Source: an uncultured delta proteobacterium (lineage in GTDB: Bacteria; Desulfobacterota; RBG-13-43-22). From it: 64,000 nt of DNA. Shown here piece after piece: positions 7,808 to 57,269 of the stretch. Position numbers and translations under genes: made by a program. The notes beneath the pieces are model-generated. The model made no database searches and was not told the origin of the DNA. It saw only the letters and a program-made list of their open reading frames with translations. The stretch lies in NCBI GenBank assembly GCA_963802945.1, contig CAWDKY010000015.1:384001-448000 (forward strand). The letters are read 5' to 3'. The first letter of the stretch is position 1; each line of letters begins with the position of its first letter.

Positions 7808-8973
7808 GCAAATAGGCTCCTGGCTTGACGCATCTTTTCGGCAATATTCAGCCCGTGTACGCATTGGGCAACACATCCGGGGCAGGTCGAGCAAAGGGAG
7901 GCCTTAGGCGCCTCATCGAAGGTGGCCTTGGCCAGCGCATATTCTTTATAGCCCTGGGCATACATGAGAGCGCGGTTGACAATGCTGATGCCTACCCCGT
8001 TGGGACAGGTGTCTTCGCATTGCCCGCAGAGCCTGCAGTAGTAAGGATCGATGGCCTGTGCAGTAGTTTCGAAGAATGCGCTCATCGGTCTTCGTCAGTT
8101 TCATTCCCATGACAGGCACCATTTGGGTGACCTGCTCGATCGTCCTCATCCCCGGAATTGCGGTACTCACGTTCGTATCCTGGAGCACCCACTTCAGATT
8201 GGCAGCGGCCTGCTCGGGAGTTATGGCTTTGGCATCTTCCCTCGTCCTGTAACCGCCCATCTGGATCTTCATGGCGATCACGCCGATCCCTGCCGCCTTT
8301 GCCCTGGCGATGGCCTCTTTCACGGAGGGTTCCGTCTTGAAGTTATAGGCCACTAGGACAGTATCGAAAAACTTTTCCGGGTCATTTACCACCGCATTGA
8401 TGACCTCCGCCTGGTTGGTATGGGTGGTGACGCCGAAGAAACGGACCTTCCCCTGTTCTTTAAGTTTGGCATAAGCCTCCCTCACCTCTGGTATAAAGGC
8501 CCGCTCACGACTGTCAAGATTGTGGAGTTGGATCACGTCGATACGGTCGGTATGGAGATTCATAAGACTCGTCTCCACATCCTTCATGATGGCTTCCTTG
8601 GTGTTCGAGGCTCGGCAGGGTTTTCGTCGCCACATAAACCTTGTCGCGTATTCCCTTGAGGGCCCTCGACACGATCTCTTCGCTCCTTCCGTTCAGATAT
8701 CGCCGGGCCGTATCCACGTAGTTGATGCCCATATCGAGACCGGCTCTTATCACCTCAGACTCCGGGGTGAGCATGGCACCGAAGCTGAGGGTTGTGACCT
8801 TGAGCCCGGTTCGGCCCAGCGTGCGAAAGGCGAGCTGTTGCGGCCAGCTCGGCCCCGAAAAGGTTGCCCACGCCCGTAAGACCAAGGGCGACTGCCCCGG
8901 CACCGGCCACCCCGATCTTCAGTAAATCTCTCCTGTTTATTGAACGTTCCTCATCCATCTTCGTATCCTCCAA
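7804..8973 (-). pseudogene. Tat-signal aldo/keto reductase with C-terminal 4Fe-4S domain, split by 3 frameshifts
   Basis: Fragments give NRRDLLK Tat motif, RTLGRTGLKV, GINYVDTARRY, DRIDVIQLHN, GVIAMK, CRLCGQCEDTCP. Confidence 0.8.
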
Positions 8974-9072
8974 AGGTTTAAGTGTTGTTACCTAAAATTG
9001 CACTCAGTAAAATATTATACCTCTTTCTGAACAGTAGTCAAATGGGGTGACCAGCAAATGAAGCCCCTCGCG

Positions 9073-14778: not shown

Positions 14779-14832
14779 AGGGAACGGTTCTGATTATTTA
14801 TTATTTCACCTTAAAGAAACCGTCCCATTTAT
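14779..14832 (+). repeat. Hairpin repeat copy 1
   Basis: AGGGAACGGTTC-TGATTATTTATTATTTCACCTTAAAG-AAACCGTCCCATTTAT; supplies the TAA stop of the flavin oxidoreductase. Confidence 0.9.
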
Positions 14833-21053: not shown

Positions 21054-21790
21054 TCAAGTTTGGTACAGACCGCCATTGACCTGGATGGTTTGTCCGGTCA
21101 TATATCCATTGCCAACCAGCATAAGGGCCACATCGGCCACCTCTTCCACGGTCCCGAAACGACCGACCGGAATCCGGTCCGGTCTGGCCTTGATGCCATC
21201 ACTCATCATATCGGTGATGATCAGGGCCGGGCATATGGCATTGACCGTGATCCCCTCCTTGAATAACCGGGAAGCGTAGGAATGGGTGAGGCCCAGGATA
21301 CCGGCCTTGGAGGCCGCATAATGAGGGCCCACAACCCCGCCGACCTGGGCGGCGGTCGAGGACAGGTTGATGATCCTTCCCCATCGCTGGGACCGAAGGC
21401 CCGGCAAAACCGCTTGGGTCACCAGGTAACAGGATTTCAGATTGATCCTGAGCGTTTCGTCCCAGACTTCTTCGGTCATTTCCTCAAGGCCCCGGGGTTT
21501 GGCAATCCCGGCATTGTTTATAAGGATGGATATGGGTCCCAGTTCCATCTCGATGGTTTCTGACCAATCGGCTCACCTCTTCCGCCTGGCTGACATCGGC
21601 CTGTACGGCCAGACTGCGACGGCCAAGACTTTTGATCTCCGAACTCACCTCCTGGGCCTCGTTTTCATGGGTTTTAAAATTGACCGCCACATCAGCACCG
21701 GCTTTGGCCAAGGACACCGCAATGGCCCGGCCGATTCCCCGACTGGCCCCGGTCACTAAAGCGATCCGGCCGCTTATTTCCGAATGTCAT
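21054..21790 (-). pseudogene. FabG-like SDR split by frameshifts
   Basis: ALVTGASRGIG in one frame; NNAG, YAASK, PVGRFG in another; a further frame break near the start. Confidence 0.8.
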
Positions 21791-21813
21791 CTTTTCATCC
21801 CTTCTTTATTGAA

Positions 21814-22203
21814 TTAGGCTTTCGTGAACAGCTCGGGGTTGGCGTATTTGGTAATGTCAATAGCGAAATGGACAAACAAATCCTTTTGGCCCCCGATGGG
21901 GAGCCAATAGGAATCCACGAACCGTTTACTGGGGGCATAATAGCCGACGGATCTTTTGCCCACCCCTTCTTCCAAAGCCGAATTTCCCAGACACTGTTTA
22001 TGAATACAATCATCTCCGGATAATTGATAGCATTTCATTCCCAAGCGAACCCCTCTGTCTCTGGCTGTTTGGTTGAAATCTACAATAGTCCGATCTTTTC
22101 TTAAGAGGAAAACAGGAGTAGGAAACATATCCCACATCAAATGAAAGGCTTTTAAAATCTCCGGATTGACCTCAATATTGTCAGGCTCTTGACTCTTTTC
22201 CAT
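21814..22203 (-). CDS. Small PAS-like protein, copy 1
   Basis: FHLMWDMFP, LLRKDRTIVDFN, GMKCY...C...C; near-identical to 24846-25235. Confidence 0.75.
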   Translation of the reverse strand: MEKSQEPDNIEVNPEILKAFHLMWDMFPTPVFLLRKDRTIVDFNQTARDRGVRLGMKCYQLSGDDCIHKQCLGNSALEEGVGKRSVGYYAPSKRFVDSYWLPIGGQKDLFVHFAIDITKYANPELFTKA

Positions 22204-23522: not shown

Positions 23523-23630
23523 ATTTGGTGCGAACACGACTTATTTCTTCAAAAATTCGAGGGACCATATTTATTTCCAATTTAAAAATTAAATTAGTAT
23601 GGATGTCCCCCGATTTAGTCCCGCTTTAAA

Positions 23631-23689
23631 TTAAAGGGGACGGTTCTGATTATTTATTCTTTCGCCTTAAAGACAACCGTCCCCTTTAT
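23631..23689 (+). repeat. Hairpin repeat copy 5
   Basis: TTAAAGGGGACGGTTC-TGATTATTTATTCTTTCGCCTTAAAGA-CAACCGTCCCCTTTAT. Confidence 0.92.
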
Positions 23690-23718
23690 CTTTTTCCCGA
23701 TGTCGTGGAATTCAACAA

Positions 23719-24468
23719 TCAATCTTTAAATCCGAATATTGCACTTTGAATGATTCTGGTTGCCATGATCATTTGTTCTGCCTTCATATAGGCACCACTC
23801 ATTCTATGTGTCTCTTTTCTATATTCTCTTGCATGTTCTTCTGACCAGAAGAAAACACACTCAGTTCAGAATGAATCGATAATACTATCGTCTTTGAGTT
23901 TGAATAAATCTATATCCGGTACAAAGATTACCGGTTCGCATCCTCCGTCCTTGACCTTATAGCGAAGATCACTGTCAATCTCGATTTCCATCGGACAAGA
24001 GCAGTGGGCACATTCGGTTTCAATTTGTACCATCAGGTGTTCGTTTCGTAATTTCCCTTGCACGAAGGGCGTTGCAAATGCATCTGCCGCTCAGGCGGCA
24101 TACAATTTTTCACCTGTGCTAAAAGAAATTTTGTGTGGGGTTTTATCAACCGTGACCGGATAGGCCCACACCACATCTCCCTTTCTGTTTCTATAGAGGA
24201 AGGTCATGCGCTTTTCCAGATAATCCAATGCGGTTTTAACACCATCAACCGAAAAACCAATCTCGTTCGATATGAATTCCGGGGATAAAGGCTTACTTTG
24301 ACGCGGGAGTTCTCTTACCACGAAATGATGAATCAGACGATATTCCTCGGATAGAGCGCCTTGTTCTTTTTCAAATTTTCTTCTTCCTTTAGCTATTTGT
24401 TTCTGCCATAAAAATGGCGGGACTTTAATTATATACCGCCACATTCCAAGCATGAGTTTATTACTCAC
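23719..24468 (-). CDS. merB: MerB-like organometallic lyase, predicted selenoprotein with two Sec (U126, U201), 249 aa
   Basis: ORFs 24091-24468 and 23866-24063 and a further 48 codons are one frame interrupted only by TGA at 24091-93 (LYAA-U-AAD) and 23866-68 (IDSF-U-TECVFFWSEEHA); also AYPVT...TPH and N-terminal wHTH. Confidence 0.82.
23828..23868 (-). promoter_or_regulatory. Bacterial SECIS-like hairpin after second UGA
   Basis: UGA-ACUGAGUGUGUU-UUCUUCU-GGUC-AGAAGAA-CAUGC: 7-bp upper stem, GGUC loop 19 nt after UGA. Confidence 0.75.
24055..24093 (-). promoter_or_regulatory. Possible SECIS hairpin after first UGA
   Basis: UGA-N21-CCCUU-CGUGC-AAGGG; G at second loop position; an alternative fold is possible. 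Confidence 0.5.
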
Positions 24469-24616
24469 AGAAATTTTCCTTTCAATCTATTTGAGGTTTC
24501 AAATGTTTAGTCGCATAAAATTTCAGCTAACCTGCCGCGCCAATGACCCACCCTTGGCCCTTTTCCAATTTTAAATGATATCGGAACCTAAAGTAGAACA
24601 ACGGTCTTGTTTAATT

Positions 24617-24673
24617 AATTGGGAGGATTCTGATTATTTATTATTTCGCCTTAAAGAGAACCACCCCATTTAT
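24617..24673 (+). repeat. Hairpin repeat copy 6
   Basis: GGGAGGATTC-TGATTATTTATTATTTCGCCTTAAAGA-GAACCACCCCATTTAT. Confidence 0.88.
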
Positions 24674-25468: not shown

Positions 25469-26503
25469 TTATTGCTTTGTTCTAAATTCCTTTAACATCG
25501 TACACTCAACGAGCTTATCCAGATTCTGTAGTGTAAACACCTTCCCCCGTGTTGCCAAGATTATCCTTTTCATATCTTCCCGCCGGACCCCGAAACCGCG
25601 GCCTGCGATGCATGCGATGACTTCGTACTTCGGCTTTCCCTCTGACTGTCCTTCCATACTCAGCGTACCCAGGCGTTGAATGCGGGCGACTTTGTCACGC
25701 GCCGTACCATCGTCCTCGGTTATTTTCGCTTCAATGATCGCCTGTGGATTGAATTCACTGGGAATAATGAAATCAGGTGTCTGATCAAAACCTTGAATTT
25801 TCTGTGCCCTTTTTGTTTTCCGGTAGGTGATACCTGCCTTGCTTAACACATCCTCAATTGCCGATTCCAGACTGTCTCCGATAAGATCGCTCACGGAGTC
25901 CCGGTGACCCGCGAAGGGTCTGCCAAGGAACCGCTCATAGAGCAGCATGGCATAAGGAACCCCGATATCTGCAAGTGATCTTATACCATCCAGACCTGTT
26001 CTCGTATCGGCCTTGTCAAGCCGATGTATTTTGTTCCGTGCCACATTCGGTACGTTCTTTTTAAGAAACTCACACGCGGTTACGATCAAGGCATTCAGCC
26101 GTTCCGCGCTCAGGCTGCTGATCTTAAGAGGTGTTATCGGTGCCAGCCGGATATCCCGATCAAGCGTACGAACGAAACCTTGGGTGACCACGATTTTTGT
26201 ATGCTGAGTGGCGATATAAGCCCACTCCGGCGGTGTGAAACCCAAAATGGTACGAATAACAATGACCGATACAGGCACGGCCTTAACGCAATCCATGACC
26301 ACCTCGGGTGTCAGGGTACGAAAACCGCCTGTTGCCTGTTTCAACGCTTCGTATCCTTTTTCAAACACTGGATATTCGACGAATCCATCACCTTTTGGCA
26401 TGATAAGAAATTCTGACTCAAGACAAGAAAATATCGCTGTCACATACTGATCAGGATCAGCCTGCACGTCCTCAAAAGGAACTTCAAAAGAAAATTTCAT
26501 CAT
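25469..26503 (-). CDS. Putative restriction endonuclease, PD-(D/E)xK
   Basis: TPDFIIP...IIEAKITEDDGTARDK; overlaps the stop of the methyltransferase. Confidence 0.75.
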   Translation of the reverse strand: MMKFSFEVPFEDVQADPDQYVTAIFSCLESEFLIMPKGDGFVEYPVFEKGYEALKQATGGFRTLTPEVVMDCVKAVPVSVIVIRTILGFTPPEWAYIATQHTKIVVTQGFVRTLDRDIRLAPITPLKISSLSAERLNALIVTACEFLKKNVPNVARNKIHRLDKADTRTGLDGIRSLADIGVPYAMLLYERFLGRPFAGHRDSVSDLIGDSLESAIEDVLSKAGITYRKTKRAQKIQGFDQTPDFIIPSEFNPQAIIEAKITEDDGTARDKVARIQRLGTLSMEGQSEGKPKYEVIACIAGRGFGVRREDMKRIILATRGKVFTLQNLDKLVECTMLKEFRTKQ

Positions 26504-28694
26504 CATCCGCTCCATATCGTTTTGACTTTTCCCGTACAACGGAGATCTTGACCTGCTCAAGGTGTTCCGTCTCTTCGCTAACATGCCGTCCGACAGCCTC
26601 TAGTCCACCGAATTCCTCGATCTTCGAAACAAGTGCTGCTGTTTTTTCTTGAACCGGTCTTGTATTGTCCCAAGTATGGCGAAGGTGCCACACCGCGAGC
26701 CGTGTAAAATGACCATAGATAATGCAGCGAACATCACCGCGTGTTTCCTTTACGCCCGCCTGGCGAAGGTTTCCCACATCATCCCTCACCAGGTCAGCAA
26801 AAGCCATGGGAGTATTAGCTAACCATCGGGCCGGTACGGAGCCGGTGCTTCGACAAACGAAGACCGTATCGACAATAGATGAACCAGTGCCGCTGATATG
26901 GATCGAAGCCCCCATCTCGGCAGGGCAAGGTAACGATGCGGAACAGACCAAGCTGGAATCGAGCATTGCAATAGCGATCGGATAATAGGCTTCGAGACTA
27001 TTGTGATGATAGGTAAACACCATCGGATGGCCGGGCTTTAAGGCTTGCGCCATTTTGCGGAACACGACCGAAAGTCCTTCCGTAAAATAATCGAGCCCCC
27101 GCTTCATATTAACGTTGCCGGTCAATTCCTGTTTGTCGCGCGTCGTACCTCGCGCAAATGCGGGATCGCCCGTACCCACGAGCTTGCGCAGCCATACATA
27201 GCAGAAATCCATCAACTCGGCATACTGCACATTGCTGTAATATGGCGGGTCAGTGAATACCGCATCCACTGACCTAGGTTGAAGGTCCGCTTCCATGGAG
27301 CTTTGGCTAAGAAGCCGCACCTGGCGTCTGATAGGTGGGGAGGTTCCGTTTTTCTGGTCCCCGATCCATTCACCACGAACAGGGACCTGAATCTTGCGGC
27401 CATGTTCGTGCCGTATCTCAAAAGGCGCATCGCAATAAGCTTTGGCTTTATAATATTTTTCGATAATATTGGCCCAGCCGCCGCTCCCCACGTTCATACC
27501 CCCGCCATTTATGATGCCGAGAAAGTTCGACTCGCACTGTACGAGCCCTATAGGGAAACCATGGACTGAAAAGATGTCAAGAGACTTTAGCGCCATTGAA
27601 TCATACCTGCAGAGCATATTCTGATAACGGAGCAGGTCCGAAAGGTTGGTTGCAAGTGCGTTCCGCACACGCTCATCAGAGACATCCGCGATGGCCCGGC
27701 AGCTCAATTCCAGCCCGAGGAGCTGGCGCAAATTGAACATCTCACGATACTTCTGGTACCCCCATCTATGGAGCCGTGCAGTCTCATCGCCACCCAATAT
27801 AATATCATCCGGCACAAACAAGGTCTTCATGCTATTCAACCTGTTTGTGGCCTCCGTATATTTGGCCAGATCGGTTCGCGAGGGCTTCTTAAAGAACCTG
27901 CCCTCGTGCTGTGGTTTGCATTTTTTACAGTGATACTCCATGGCGTACATCCGATGAGTTGGTGGATGCTCGGGCTTGAAGGAGTAAAAGTTTGGCTTGC
28001 CGCAGTGTTTGCACTCGTATTTGCTCCTCTTTGCTGGACCATCAACTAGAATTCGTTCGCCGCATGACTTGCACTTGCCCGGTCGATGTCGATCTTTTAC
28101 TCCGTTCAATTCCCCGCAGGACGCGCACACATATATGTTCTCAGGATGTCGTTTGTCCTCCGCAAGCAGGTACCCAGGAAAAAGATCATTCGCCTTGCCG
28201 CAGTTGGCGCAGGTATGCTGTTTTACCCAGAGGAAATATTTTACATGTGCCTTTCTTGATCCGCACTCAAGACAGGTTGTATGATATAAGCTCCCGATAT
28301 TTTGTTCCAACCCGCTGACAAGCTCATCCGCTGCTTTACGATAGGCCTTTAAGTCCAGGTGTTCAATCTCTTGCCGCACGATCCAGTAGGCCATTGGGTT
28401 GATGTCATAGCCGATCACATCGCATCCAATGCGGTTTGCTTCAACGATAGGGGTACCTCCGCCCATGAAGGGATCGACCACGACAAGGCCGGAGAGGTTA
28501 TTGGAAGAGTAGAAAGTGTCCTGCAGCGGTTTGTTTACAAACTCCGAGAGAAGAAGCCCACGGAAAAGCGTACCCGGTCGCCGCGCAAACCACTTATGCA
28601 CAGCGATAATAGGCCGGTAATTCTGCTGAATTTGCTTTTCATGCAAAGCCAGGGAAGAGATAAATGGTATGTCGAATTTTTTTTCAATGGACAT
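26484..28694 (-). CDS. Amino-DNA methyltransferase with Zn-ribbon insertions (DUF1156-like)
   Basis: HKWFARRPG, DPFMGGGT, TDPPYY, many CxxC pairs. Confidence 0.88.
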   Translation of the reverse strand: MSIEKKFDIPFISSLALHEKQIQQNYRPIIAVHKWFARRPGTLFRGLLLSEFVNKPLQDTFYSSNNLSGLVVVDPFMGGGTPIVEANRIGCDVIGYDINPMAYWIVRQEIEHLDLKAYRKAADELVSGLEQNIGSLYHTTCLECGSRKAHVKYFLWVKQHTCANCGKANDLFPGYLLAEDKRHPENIYVCASCGELNGVKDRHRPGKCKSCGERILVDGPAKRSKYECKHCGKPNFYSFKPEHPPTHRMYAMEYHCKKCKPQHEGRFFKKPSRTDLAKYTEATNRLNSMKTLFVPDDIILGGDETARLHRWGYQKYREMFNLRQLLGLELSCRAIADVSDERVRNALATNLSDLLRYQNMLCRYDSMALKSLDIFSVHGFPIGLVQCESNFLGIINGGGMNVGSGGWANIIEKYYKAKAYCDAPFEIRHEHGRKIQVPVRGEWIGDQKNGTSPPIRRQVRLLSQSSMEADLQPRSVDAVFTDPPYYSNVQYAELMDFCYVWLRKLVGTGDPAFARGTTRDKQELTGNVNMKRGLDYFTEGLSVVFRKMAQALKPGHPMVFTYHHNSLEAYYPIAIAMLDSSLVCSASLPCPAEMGASIHISGTGSSIVDTVFVCRSTGSVPARWLANTPMAFADLVRDDVGNLRQAGVKETRGDVRCIIYGHFTRLAVWHLRHTWDNTRPVQEKTAALVSKIEEFGGLEAVGRHVSEETEHLEQVKISVVREKSKRYGADDDEIFF

Positions 28695-29089
28695 TGGAAG
28701 TAAGGAAATGTGAGGCTGTCGTTTATTGAAAGAGAGTACATTATTTGCGGGTTAAATGCAAGAGTGTTGAGGTTTATCGAGAAAACTGGCCAAAAAAGAT
28801 CGTTCGGGTTAAAATTAATGAGGAACTTCCATGATGAATTTCCGCAAAGCACCCTGAGAACGAATTTCCCTAACGTTGTTTATACTCTTCCCATCAAAAA
28901 GCTAGTCTTTATCAAAAATACAGTCTGTATAAAATAGGAAACACAGACTGTTCCCCTCTATATACAAAAGTTGGATCAGGTCTTGGAATATAAGCTTTTC
29001 CTTTCAGATTCCTAAACCGTCTTGAAGTTAGTAAGTCTTTATTGATAAATCAAGACCTCTTCCTCCGTCACTGTAATATGGGATGTGGC

Positions 29090-30390
29090 CATAGTTTTAA
29101 AGCATACGGGAAAAGATACTTTGCTCGTTCAACTATAGATTGTTCATCCCATTCAGCTATATTGTAGAAATAATGATTTAGCATAAGAGAAGAATGTAAT
29201 AATTCGGTTTTTTTCGGAATCAAAGGGGCCGTTACTAAGGGCCGTATTTAACGGCTAAGTAACAATGGTCAAGTTTCCTACAGTTTGAATTATTTTGTTT
29301 CTGTATTGAACTTTCTCTTTTATTCTATCCCATGTTTCTGCTTTTTTAACATCGGACGAATAATACCAATCGTCTGTCATGTCGGGCTCAATACTTTCTC
29401 CTTCCAATTTATAATTTGCAGCCCATTTTTGGGGCATAATATGTTCTACCGATGCTTGATCGATAGTTAATGTTTCAGACTTTACTGATCTCAATCTATC
29501 TTCAATCATTCTCATGATGGTCACTAATTGTTGACTGCTTAGATTTCTGTATATTGGTGCATTATGCCATCGTTCAGTAAATGCTTTGTCATCCGGCCAT
29601 TTCTGGTCTCCCCCTTTCCTTGAAGAAGCAATTCCCTTAATCGTTCTCGTGAAATCCCTTCCTTTCTCAATTTACTAACAATTTCTACAAAGAAAATATT
29701 GTACTCTTTTGTCATTTTACTGCAAATAAGTCTTCTAACAATAAACGATTCAAGATCATTTAAACTAAATATTAGATCATCCTTGTCAAAACCGGACTCT
29801 TCAAATAAATATATTACGAGAGGATATACCGTTGAGACATCCCATATTTTCAATCTCCTTGCAAAATCACTGAAATCATCATCACTGGTTGGACCTTCAA
29901 GTAAGTAACGGTATCGCCTTCCATATTGGTTAAAATCAGAGAGTTCATCTTTAACTGTTGCATATGGCTTCGCAAGAGTTATCCAGTCTTTATATTCCAA
30001 ATGAACCCTTTTTGAATCAATGATTTGTCCTTTCTTTGATGAAAGGAATACTCGTGTAACTACATCCAAATGGGACGACCACTGATTCCCTCTTCTGATT
30101 GTTTGATCCCAAAATGACTCTTCAAAATACTTCCAATAATCTTCATAAAGCTTATCTCGATCCTCTATTCCTTGTTCGGCTCTCATGAAAACAAAACTTC
30201 TTAATAGGTCGGATTGACTGAGCGGTTTACCTTGTGAATTAAGGGAATGAAATATTTCTTGAGAGTTATCATTATCGTCGAGCAATATCTCGACAACGGC
30301 AAAATCATCCTTGAGTACTCCAAAAACTTCCATTAATATATCTTCGACAGAATAATTTTCCTCTTCTACTGCCATCATGGAATTAAAAGG
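29090..30390 (-). pseudogene. DUF262/DUF1524 (GmrSD-like) nuclease, 5'-truncated and disrupted
   Basis: QEIFHSLNSQGKPLSQSDLLR; VEHIMPQ...GNLT HNH motif; frameshift near 29595, internal TAG at 29255. Confidence 0.8.
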
Positions 30391-30394
30391 AATA

Positions 30395-31237
30395 TACTGG
30401 TACGATTTCACACAACCCCGGGCCATTGAGCGGCGTCATAAAGCCCGGCATTATCGCCGGCATGATCACCGTACGCTGGTTGAATATGTTGAAGCTAAAA
30501 TCCGTATCGAATGGCCTCCGGAAGTTATTGCTGCTCACCTAAAGCTTGATCACCCAAACGATAAAACCATGCGTATCTGCCAGGAAACTATTTATCGGTG
30601 GATATTTCAAGATGCTCAACAAGGTGGCGATCTCTACTGCTATCAGAGACGCCGTCACAAAAAACGCCGCAAACAAAGACGCTATGGCTCGGGAAGACGT
30701 TTTATCCCTGGGCGTGTTTCCATTGATCAACGTCCATCCCTGGTTGATTTACGCCAACGGTTTGGGGACTGGGAAGGGGACACGCTGGAAGGTGGAAAAG
30801 GAAAAGGGGGCCTGGCCACTCATGTCGAGCGTAAAGGCCGTTATCTATTGGCAGCCAAGCTCTCGGACAAGACCTCCAACACCATGACTCAGCAAAGCAT
30901 TAAATCCTTTCGGAAAGCTCCCCGGACCCTACGCCATACCCTCACCGTTGATAATGGTAAAGAATTTTCTAATTTCAAAGAGCTCGAAAATAAAACCGGG
31001 TTAAAAGTCTATTTCGCAGACCCCTATGCAGCTTGGCAGCGGGGAATCAATGAAAATACAAATGGTCTGTTAAGACAATATTTCCCAAAAGGAACTGATT
31101 TCCAAAAGATATCGGAAAAAGAGATTGCTTTTGTCGTTAAAAAACTAAATAATCGCCCCAGAAAATGTCTCCACTACCAGACCCCTCATGCGGTCTTCTG
31201 TCAGGCTCTTAGTGGTGCACTTTGAAGTAGAATCTGC
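30395..31237 (+). mobile_element. IS30-family element, 5'-truncated
   Basis: [60 protein letters not shown]; right end GGTGCACTTTGAAGTAGAATCTG. Confidence 0.92.
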
Positions 31238-31310
31238 CTAATATAATTACCATTGAGCCCAAACCTCCCCAATACAATATATCTGACTAAGGCTGTGCAG
31301 TAAGGAACAA

Positions 31311-31448
31311 GAGGTGTTTTATCGGGTGGATCTTTTGAGATATGGATCTGGGCCATGAATCTCCTCAAGATCTTCAGGAAAGTTTTTGGTAAGAATAAGA
31401 ATGAAAGGAATTATAGAATATAACTGGCTAATTTGCAAAGAAATATTT
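31311..31448 (-). repeat. ~135-bp promoter+RBS+start repeat, copy 1
   Basis: Minus strand TTGCAA-N17-TATAAT...GAGGAG-ATG GCC CAG ATC CAT ATC TCA AAA GAT CCA; recurs at 36765-36900, partially at 32950-32995. Confidence 0.8.
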
Positions 31449-31796
31449 TAAATGCAGGTGGTCCGCTATTTGTGCCAGCTTCTTATCAAGGGTCCAGAGA
31501 GATACGCCCGTCAATACAGCGGAGGCCAGAAGATGAACATCCACGTATCCCAACCCTTTCCCCATTAACCGGTTGTCTTCTATAAATGCCAACACTTCTT
31601 CGTGCTCGGCTACGATACTTATGGGTAACAATTCCAGGTACGAAAGGATGACCGGCCTATTCTTAAGATTACCGCAGGCCAGCTCACCTAAAATAAACGG
31701 ATGGCACAGAACTCTTCCATCATTGAGCAGGGCTGCAAGCTCGGCACTTCCCTTCCGTAGATGGGTAACCCAGACCGAGGTATCGACCAGAACCAT
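31428..31796 (-). CDS. vapC: VapC PIN-domain toxin
   Basis: MVLVDTSVW, HPFILGELACG, YVDVHLLASA, LWTLDKKL. Confidence 0.93.
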   Translation of the reverse strand: MVLVDTSVWVTHLRKGSAELAALLNDGRVLCHPFILGELACGNLKNRPVILSYLELLPISIVAEHEEVLAFIEDNRLMGKGLGYVDVHLLASAVLTGVSLWTLDKKLAQIADHLHLKYFFAN

Positions 31797-55558: not shown

Positions 55559-57060
55559 CTACATTACAATATCCCGTTTAATAATCTTGCCTGAAGGCGT
55601 TTTAGGAAATTCATGGACAAACTGGATGATGCGGGGATATTTGTAGGGAGCGACCTGGGCCTTAACATATTGCTTCAATTCTTCCGCAGTGGTTTCCATT
55701 CCCGGACGGAGAACTACTGCAGCCGCCACCTCTTCTCCTAAATCGGAAGAAGGGATTCCGATAACCGCCGCTTCCAGGACCGCCGGGTGGGTATATAAAA
55801 CTTCCTCAATCTCCCGGGGATAAATATTATACCCCCCTCGGATGATCAAATCCTTCTTGCGGTCGACGATATAAATATAACCGTCCTCATCCCTACGGGC
55901 CAGGTCACCGGTATGCAAAAAACCACCTCGCAAGGCCTCGGCCGTGGCTTCCGGATTATTCAGATATCCCTTCATCATAGCCGCCCCGGAGACAATCAAC
56001 TCGCCGATCTCTCCAGAAGGGACATCCCGGTCTTGTTCATCCACAATACGTACTTGAAAACCCGGAATCGGCAGACCGATCGAACCGGGACGTGTCGGCC
56101 GGCCAAAGGGATTTTCCACACAGGTTGGAGAGAATTCCGTTAGCCCATAGCTTTCATAGATGGTTGTCTTGAAGCTCTTTTCAAATCGGTGCAGGATTTC
56201 CACCGGAAGGGAAGCCCCTCCGGAAATACAGAAACGCAGGCTGGACCTTTTCGGCGGATGACTTGAAGCCAATTCCGCCAGTCGAATGACCATGGTGGGG
56301 ACGGCATAAAGGAGAGTGCTTTTTTCTTCTTCAATGGCCTTAAGAACCTCTTCGGCATCAAAGACAGACCACATCCTGATGGTCAATCCGAGGAGAATGG
56401 ATATGTTTAAGGCATGAGTCTGGCCGTAGATATGAAAAAGGGGGAGCACACTCAAGGACTATATCTTCCGCTTCAGTTTGACGCACCTGGGCTACGGCCC
56501 TGGCATCCGTCATGAGACTTTGATGGGTCAAGACCGCCCCTTTGGGTTTCCCGGTCGTGCCGCTGGTATAGATCACGGCCAAGGGATCTTGGCCGTCGGT
56601 CGGGTGGGTTTCCATATCGACTTCCTGGTCGAACAAATCGGTTAAGGGAAAAAATCCGGGAGGCAGATCCCGTCCATCGGCGATACGCAGGTCGATTTGA
56701 GGACAGGAGGTCATGGCCGATAAGGCCTCAGGCAAATAGTCGCTGTGGCCGATGAAGGCCCGAGCGCCGGAATCGGTGAATATATATTCCAGTTCCCTTT
56801 GGCGAAAGAGAAAATTGACCGGCACAGCCACGGCCCCCAGTTTGGCCAGGGCATAATAAACCAGGGCCCAATTCAGGGAACTGGGCATCATCAATACGCA
56901 GAAATCACCGGCCTTAAGGCCTAAACGGGCCAAGCCCCCGGGCCAATCGATTCACGTCACGGTTCATTTCTCCGTAAGTGACAATGCTTTTTTCAAATCG
57001 GATGGCCGGATGGTCCGGGATCCGTTTGGCAGTATCGGTCAAAAAGTCTGCTAAATTCAT
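55559..57060 (-). pseudogene. Long-chain fatty-acid-CoA ligase split by 2 frameshifts
   Basis: MNLADFL start at 57060; YTSGTTGKPKG; YGLTE; TGDLA; VDRKKDLIIRGG; PKTPSGKI. Confidence 0.85.
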
Positions 57061-57269
57061 TTTTGAGGGGCCTCTTTAACTGTTTCAAGCCAAGGATTTC
57101 CTCTCTGAGGAATCGATTCTCTTTTTTCAATTCTTCTCTAGAGGGTTCTTTTTTCATGGTTCGGACTTTCCCTGGCAGGTTCTCTACCAAGTATAGTGAG
57201 GGTTATTCTGTTCTGTCAAAGCAATTCTGTCCCCCTTCGATGTTCTTGTGATTTTCAAACAGTTGGGTT

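Follow-up and report, generated by a model that had tools for sequence, protein, structure and literature searches.

A MerB-like gene with in-frame UGA codons at both metal-binding cysteine positions in an uncultured delta proteobacterium, encoding a candidate selenium-dependent lyase

The stretch of DNA analyzed here, hereafter the window, comprises 64,000 nt of contig CAWDKY010000015.1 (positions 384,001 to 448,000; assembly GCA_963802945.1) from an uncultured delta proteobacterium of the Desulfobacterota, and carries a gene for a protein related to the organomercurial lyase MerB. In MerB, Cys96 and Cys159 bind the metal and Asp99 donates a proton to the carbon. Comparison with homologous sequences strongly supports the reading of the window gene as a MerB relative in which selenocysteine (Sec), specified by two in-frame UGA codons, takes the place of both metal-binding cysteines. 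It is close to certain that each internal UGA is read as Sec owing to the SelB-type hairpin that follows it and that the final UGA, which is hairpin-free, terminates translation. Features and their coordinates are collected in Table 1.

A preliminary description, made from the letters of the window alone, had placed the gene at 23719..24468. These coordinates were right, and the strand needs correcting to minus; the plus-strand translation of the interval is full of stops. On the minus strand, a single frame of 249 codons runs from a GTG start and, as had been described, is interrupted by TGA only. End-to-end alignment with 24 relatives (39-63% identity) gave a set of 25 sequences in which the start of the window gene was consistent with the N-termini of the others, and in which the relatives terminated with TAA, TAG or TGA 0-10 residues past an FGF/FGW motif. 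A terminal TGA was common among the relatives too, a few codons past FGF/FGW (e.g., locus L029, G241). With these terminal TGAs acting as stops, one mRNA would hold both recoded and terminating UGAs. Calling of open reading frames (ORFs) with translation table 11 returned a 125-aa piece (24468..24091) and a 65-aa piece, and together with the public protein sets described below this bears out the expectation that gene callers split the gene. In a scan for promoters and terminators, counts were at or below shuffle expectation.

Homology to MerB was found at the level of family, profile and predicted structure. The read-through protein scored 52.8 bits against Pfam MerB (PF03243; cut-off 27, E 5e-14, residues 107-235), and the window gene also passed in a six-frame Pfam MerB search of the genome. 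A profile of 25 family members matched MerB2/MerB chains in the Protein Data Bank (PDB) with E from 2.4e-8 to 7.2e-6. An AlphaFold2 model (predicted local distance difference test, 89.7; predicted template modeling score, 0.87) was compared with the PDB using Foldseek, whereby the top 11 hits were all MerB/MerB2 (E 3e-12 to 1e-7; target-normalised template modeling score 0.65-0.81) and all subsequent hits had E of at least 0.04. Counted along 1s6l_A in the profile alignment, U126 corresponds to Cys96, D129 to Asp99, C153 to Cys117 and U201 to Cys159. D129 was invariant (25/25 and 81/81 sequences), and the MerB core around the active site was conserved throughout the 25 aligned sequences. The initial recognition of the gene as MerB-like, with its TGAs at Cys96 and Cys159, is therefore upheld by Pfam score, PDB profile matches, the Foldseek search and the 1s6l_A alignment. 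Approximately 40 N-terminal residues had no MerB counterpart and are predicted to form a beta-hairpin followed by a long helix.

Given the two in-frame TGAs, we scrutinized the genome (4.37 Mb, 72 contigs, 47% G+C) for Sec decoding. All four of the selA, selB, selC and selD genes, whose presence the preliminary description had proposed as a check, were found, the corresponding scores being 74 bits for tRNA-Sec, 627 for selA, 266 for selB and 392 for selD, each above its cut-off. The selD gene itself has an in-frame TGA (G000:C17:415477-416388, L020; motif AG-U-ASKLG), and about 17 nt past this UGA lies a hairpin of 5 bp with the loop CGGGA, comparable to those of the window gene. TGA is also an ordinary stop in this genome, closing 570 of 1725 open frames of at least 300 codons.

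Relatives were drawn from two samples. Among 401 genomes searched from the same phylum, matches occurred in 29. The full-length matches numbered 25, at 39-63% identity, and TGA occupied both columns in 25/25; the other six listed places were two pieces of one frame-split copy and four short or remote matches (27-37% identity, 0-2 TGAs). The second sample came from 205 loci in species-representative genomes. Both TGAs were present in 80/80 of the best 80 of these 205 loci, two of them (L079 and L110) having one further stop each. Since one of the two search patterns needed a Cys codon, these 80 loci were findable only through the other, VxWAYPVT, which lies outside the TGA sites, and the sample is therefore without bias towards TGA. 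Pooled, both TGAs were found at the same positions in 105/105 homologous genes examined, from metagenome-assembled genomes (MAGs) of Desulfobacterota, Nitrospirota, Chloroflexota and Acidimicrobiia, and protein homology was strong on both sides of each TGA. The decoding machinery, the conservation of the TGAs and the homology that continues past both of them all support the earlier reading of these codons as Sec.

Bacterial Sec insertion sequence (SECIS) elements are stem-loops situated shortly 3' of the UGA with a G in the apical loop. A hairpin follows each internal TGA of the window gene, and the second has the 7-bp stem and the GGUC loop, 19 nt downstream, that had been noticed at the outset. 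Folding of the single sequence after TGA1 and TGA2 gave z-scores of -0.82 and +0.17, respectively, with 45 and 104 of 200 shuffles folding equally well; taken from one sequence alone the hairpins are thus not beyond chance and are no evidence. An Rfam scan of 23600-24600 at E <= 10 gave chance-level hits only and no SECIS family. Comparison across the relatives, on the other hand, places the hairpins far beyond chance. The five core pairs of hairpin 1 were standard pairs in 25/25 sequences, and across 81 sequences the relative synonymous codon entropy was 0.14 for hairpin 1 (codons 133-138) and 0.27 for hairpin 2, against a mean of 0.85 over the 77 conserved degenerate codons elsewhere in the gene. 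The closing pair of hairpin 2 was U-A in 15 and C-G in 10 of 25 sequences and unpaired in none, a score reached by 0/500 shuffles. Across the 105 homologues, this pair was formed by Trp TGG with Ser TCA in 82 and by Arg CGG with Ser TCG in 23, with no mixed combination, and a quick tree placed about 8 changes between the two states. These alignment patterns indicate that the hairpins are under selection at the RNA level. The Trp-to-Arg change is accompanied in every case by a synonymous change of the Ser codon through which the RNA pair is regained, and this makes the family a teaching case for SECIS evolution.

To establish how the family appears in public protein data, representatives clustered at 50% identity were searched, giving 499 clusters at E <= 1e-3; 149 of the best 150 were aligned, and the following classes refer to these. 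Fragments ending at residue 124/125 made up 88 of the 149, with a further eight being pieces between the two TGAs and 31 other fragments. Eight had Cys at 126 and ended at 199/200, four had Trp at one or both TGA sites, and one was a C-terminal piece with Arg at 201. The remainder were full length, with Ser/Cys (three), Gly/Cys (three), Glu/Leu (one), Ser/Arg (one) or Gly/Gly (one) at the two sites. The preliminary description had asked for homologues with Cys at both TGA positions: MerB itself is such a homologue, whereas none was found among the 149 aligned close representatives. Full-length Sec-free relatives (P0004, P0008, P0116, P0016, P0018 and P0180) had Ser, Gly, Arg or Leu at the two sites, residues that can each be encoded one base away from TGA (TCA, GGA, CGA/AGA and TTA, respectively). 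The Sec-free relatives may therefore represent lineages in which Sec decoding was lost, or copies that are inactive.

In a set of 5.8 billion proteins, 116 sequences were aligned, of which 63 ended at residue 125, 41 were full length with Trp at both sites, four had Cys at 126 and ended at 200, one had Gly/Leu and seven were other fragments. Source names in the public sets were 'hypothetical protein' or 'alkylmercury lyase', and the named NCBI records were truncated hypothetical proteins. Neither the window protein nor any of seven further sequences (four of the window family, the full-length P0004, which lacks Sec, and two from the paralogue family described below) reached any cut-off in NCBIfam (June 2026). 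Among sequencing runs, none held more than 0.14 of the sampled words, and the four runs examined gave contigs of relatives only. One contig from an RNA library spanned the whole gene at ~87% identity; DNA carry-over is possible, hence nothing about expression or habitat is drawn from these runs.

The 41 of 116 metagenome-pipeline proteins with Trp at both sites, the fragments obtained with table 11 and the nonsignificant folding energies of the single sequence would be expected if the gene encoded no selenoprotein at all and were instead a pseudogene, three small ORFs, a sequencing error or a gene in which TGA means Trp or Gly under another code. Such an explanation is extremely improbable. 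It would have to account for the two TGAs standing at the same columns in every homologue examined, with the protein conserved on either side, in a genome with full Sec machinery where TGA is a common stop and the stop of this very gene. Furthermore, the sites align with the MerB cysteines, Cys occupies position 126 in eight clusters of relatives, and the hairpins appear to be maintained at the RNA level. Together, TGA conservation, hairpin selection, the machinery and the use of TGA as a stop exclude a pseudogene, a sequencing error and an alternative code for practical purposes.

A second two-Sec MerB-like gene (P0003) occurs on another contig of the same genome, scoring 62.5 bits against Pfam MerB and being 21% identical to the window protein. 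In the genome's copy and in one relative, L140, two in-frame TGAs fall at the same two aligned positions as in the window family. The motifs of the genome's copy are WFGQ-U-AFE, where Glu replaces Asp, and SYA-U-STMTIF. The N-terminal extension of the window family is missing from this second family, whose C-terminal tail is longer. It was found in 49 of the 401 genomes of the phylum, with exactly two TGAs in 43 of the 46 places at >= 40% identity, and no NCBIfam model reached its cut-off for either of the two sequences scanned. On the sequence data, double-Sec MerB-like proteins are a recurrent theme in this phylum.

Table 1. Features of the double-Sec MerB-like gene in the window and location of its paralogue
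Feature	Position	Strand	Details
MerB-fold selenoprotein coding sequence, 249 residues, two internal Sec codons	24468..23722	-	GTG start; from translation, Pfam, model and alignment
Sec codon 1, UGA, residue 126	24093-24091	-	LYAA-U-AADAF; family motif YAA-U-AxDA; equivalent to MerB Cys96
Sec codon 2, UGA, residue 201	23868-23866	-	IDSF-U-TECVFFW; family motif (D/N)xF-U-xxxVFF; equivalent to MerB Cys159
True stop, TGA	23721-23719	-	relatives end nearby; nothing conserved beyond; no conserved hairpin after it
Shine-Dalgarno-like AAGGA	24477..24481	-	8 nt upstream of the GTG start
SECIS-like hairpin 1	24069-24055	-	CCCUU/AAGGG, loop CGUGC starting 26 nt after UGA1; codons T-P-F-V-Q-G
SECIS-like hairpin 2	23853-23836	-	UUCUUCU/AGAAGAA, 7 bp, loop GGUC starting 19 nt after UGA2; codons F-F-W-S-E-E
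Second two-Sec MerB-like gene (P0003)	G000:C13:25801-26508; L001:1285-1992; L134	+ (L001)	another contig, same genome

The window protein was compared with the known proteins that it most resembles. With MerB (PDB 1s6l and 3f0p; MerB2, 5c17) it shares the fold, the Pfam family, the three active-site positions, the structural Cys117 and a similar core length. It differs from MerB in having Sec at both the Cys96 and Cys159 positions, in its ~15-20% identity (Foldseek), in its ~40-residue N-terminal extension, in lacking Cys160, and in the absence of a mer operon around the gene and of a MerA above cut-off in the genome. Against the two canonical MerB models, NF033555 and NF009710, it stayed far below the cut-offs (41 bits versus 200 and 47.7 bits versus 193).

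SaoL (NF040728) is a MerB-like selenoprotein of the SAO locus which, in the consulted parts of its description, carries its single Sec in a CU (Cys-Sec) dipeptide, retains Cys where MerB has Cys96, and belongs to a nine-gene locus (Haft and Gwadz, bioRxiv 10.1101/2022.07.06.499078). As far as those parts go, SaoL and the window protein are alike in being MerB-like proteins of anaerobes with Sec at the Cys159-equivalent ligand, in being truncated by annotation and in that the substrate is suspected not to be confined to mercury. In contrast to SaoL, the window protein has two Sec, in the motifs AA-U-A and SF-U-T, with no Cys preceding the second. Its score with the SaoL model was 41.5 bits, where the cut-off is 140, and the best match to SaoL in the genome was 34.7 bits, none being SaoL-grade. 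While SaoL is said there to mark a nine-gene locus (ABC transporter, SaoT, SaoC and others), the window gene stands alone; Pfam scans of its flanks revealed no ABC transporter set, SaoL being the only Sao hidden Markov model (HMM) searched. By sequence comparison, then, the window protein is neither canonical MerB nor SaoL. A table in a selenoprotein review, of which part was consulted, lists metal-binding double selenoproteins in which the two Sec are thought to bind one metal; the motifs given there, UxxU and CU, imply Sec residues close in sequence, and the folds are unrelated to that of the window protein. In the latter, the two Sec are 75 residues apart and would be joined by the MerB fold.

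If the chemistry of MerB is retained, a carbon-bound soft metal or metalloid would be clamped between the two selenolates, with Asp129 protonating the carbon so that the carbon-metal bond is cleaved. Compared with thiols, selenolates would have a lower pKa, remain unprotonated at neutral pH and show a higher affinity for soft metals. The roles of the MerB active-site residues are set out in the consulted text of Haft and Gwadz (10.1101/2022.07.06.499078), and selone mimics of organomercurial lyase are reported, in the part of the source consulted, to break Hg-C bonds more rapidly than the corresponding sulfur compounds (PMC11639659). In many relatives the gene lies behind a regulator of the MarR or MerR family, which suggests an arrangement such as an inducible detoxification gene would have. 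A MarR regulator was directly upstream on the same strand in 19/81 loci by clustering and 18/73 by Pfam, and a MerR-family regulator in 11/81 and 9/73, respectively. Taken as a whole, the description of the protein as a stand-alone cytoplasmic MerB-fold enzyme that uses two Sec and an Asp in a lyase mechanism leans towards being correct. Activity as a carbon-metal(loid) lyase, considered on its own, is an even call, and an organomercurial such as methylmercury is proposed as the physiological substrate only tentatively.

Several observations weigh against this reading. The window gene stands alone, with a convergent ferredoxin-domain gene on one side and small ORFs without annotation on the other, and the flanking genes were assigned by Pfam to oxidoreductases, a ferredoxin-domain protein and a methylase. 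No merA, merR, merT or merP was found in the ~10 kb to each side of the gene, nor did an ars or transporter gene lie beside it in the window. MerR-family regulators aside, the nearest upstream gene in 73 loci of relatives was never a mer or ars gene, and no MerA scored above cut-off in the genome. The initial statement that no merA, merR or transporter lies beside the gene thus holds for the window; it does not extend to those relatives with a MerR-family regulator (9/73). One such adjacent regulator, L072, has a single cysteine and is therefore unlike a mercury sensor. The neighbourhood was not conserved across 81 loci, the largest neighbour cluster being present in 19/81, and a conserved operon was rejected because the neighbours were heterogeneous. 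HgcA fell below its HMM cut-off in this genome, and an HgcA cap-helix motif was not found in the six-frame translation. HgcA above cut-off was recorded in 13/25 carriers compared with 106/376 other genomes, a mild difference from a hand tally in which related genomes are not independent. The nearest full-length Sec-free homologues have Ser or Gly, not Cys, at 126, so this position may not be strictly catalytic in all relatives. Finally, a bis-selenolate site would come at a cost: it should release Hg(II) very slowly, and with no MerA the mercury product would be left without a known or evident acceptor. With slow release and no acceptor, non-catalytic binding, a substrate other than mercury, and diselenide redox chemistry all remain as rivals.

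Some of these features would also suit a non-catalytic binder of soft metals or metalloids, namely a sink, chaperone or sensor holding Hg(II), Cu(I), Cd, As(III) or similar. Hg(II) would be expected to bind to a bis-selenolate with extreme affinity and to leave it slowly, no MerA is present to accept a product, and the gene stands alone. For MerB, the consulted part of one source recognizes a single structural relative, the Cu(I)-binding protein NosL (PMC10114901), and the review table cited above includes metal-binding double selenoproteins. Pure binding is nonetheless somewhat unlikely, as the acid at the Asp99 position is invariant (81/81; Glu in the genome's paralogue and in L140) and conservation extends over the entire MerB core surrounding the site. 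A decidedly unlikely alternative is a redox enzyme in which the MerB fold has been re-used for a diselenide or two-selenol cycle on a nonmetal substrate. Most prokaryotic selenoproteins are redox proteins according to the consulted parts of two reviews (PMC13188914, PMC9312934), the two Sec are predicted, by homology to Hg-bound MerB, to be adjacent in space, and some neighbourhoods include coenzyme A-ester enzymes (a downstream 4HBT thioesterase in 9/81 loci and an AMP-ligase in 8/81). However, no conserved redox partner lies beside the gene and the protein has no thioredoxin-like motif. In addition, we know of no redox members among MerB-fold proteins.

Further features were observed in the surroundings of the gene. 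A 64-nt palindromic repeat with the arms GGGGACGGTT / AACCGTCCCC brackets the gene exactly, at 23626-23689 and 24610-24673; these two copies are 84% identical and recur at an interval of 984 nt. In total, six copies with the same orientation occupy intergenic gaps of the 14.8-25.4 kb region, the others lying near 14789, 19410, 22254 and 25348, and at <= 2 mismatches there are seven copies genome-wide, five of them in this region. The repeat may be a cassette-like or terminator-like element; no canonical attC boxes were recognized by eye and no integron integrase was found in Pfam scans of the window. Adjoining the repeat region, 26484-31796 is a mobile or defence-looking stretch with a gene for a 736-aa DUF1156/DNA methylase protein, a GmrSD N-terminal fragment, an rve-type integrase and a PIN-domain gene. 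Three other genes, encoding a short-chain dehydrogenase/reductase (21054-21548), an aldo-keto reductase (7946-8632) and an AMP-binding enzyme (55559-56452), matched only the C-terminal part of their Pfam models. Hidden selenoproteins at these places (21054-21900, 7946-9000 and 55559-57200) were rejected because of other stops and frame breaks upstream, and the partial genes may be pseudogenes or assembly errors.

In the literature searched, which excluded supplements and Haft and Tolstoy 2025 (mSystems), no description of a two-Sec MerB-like form was found. In the consulted part of a 2026 review of prokaryotic selenoproteins, which counts 119 families, SaoL was the only MerB-like entry found, and it was likewise the sole MerB-like entry in that of a 2022 selenoprotein review; the main text of BSepDB and the GOS selenoproteome paper had no MerB-like entry. 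The absence of a Cys/Cys form among close relatives suggests that selenium is essential to the chemistry and not optional. To our knowledge, a MerB fold in which both metal ligands are Sec, 75 residues apart and joined by the fold alone, has not been described. The family also exposes a blind spot of annotation, a large multiphylum group (499 clusters, 205 loci) being represented in public sets almost only by 125-residue stubs or Trp mistranslations.

Carriers include sulfate reducers, syntrophs, and Nitrospirota and Chloroflexota MAGs, with groundwater, lake and marine sources named in record titles, and in part they coincide with the anaerobes to which discussions of methylmercury turnover refer. 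The consulted part of one source (PMC10114901) describes the enzymes behind mer-independent demethylation by anaerobes as not established, and the window gene is a concrete candidate for this role. That the window family and its paralogue are obligately selenium-dependent carbon-metal lyases, by which strict anaerobes destroy trace methylmercury or other natural organometal(loid)s without a mer operon, is an unlikely proposal in this full form. If true, every merB survey would overlook such a lyase, since its gene is truncated in annotation and the surveys require Cys96 and Cys159, and it would be a missing enzyme of mer-independent demethylation in anoxic sediments.

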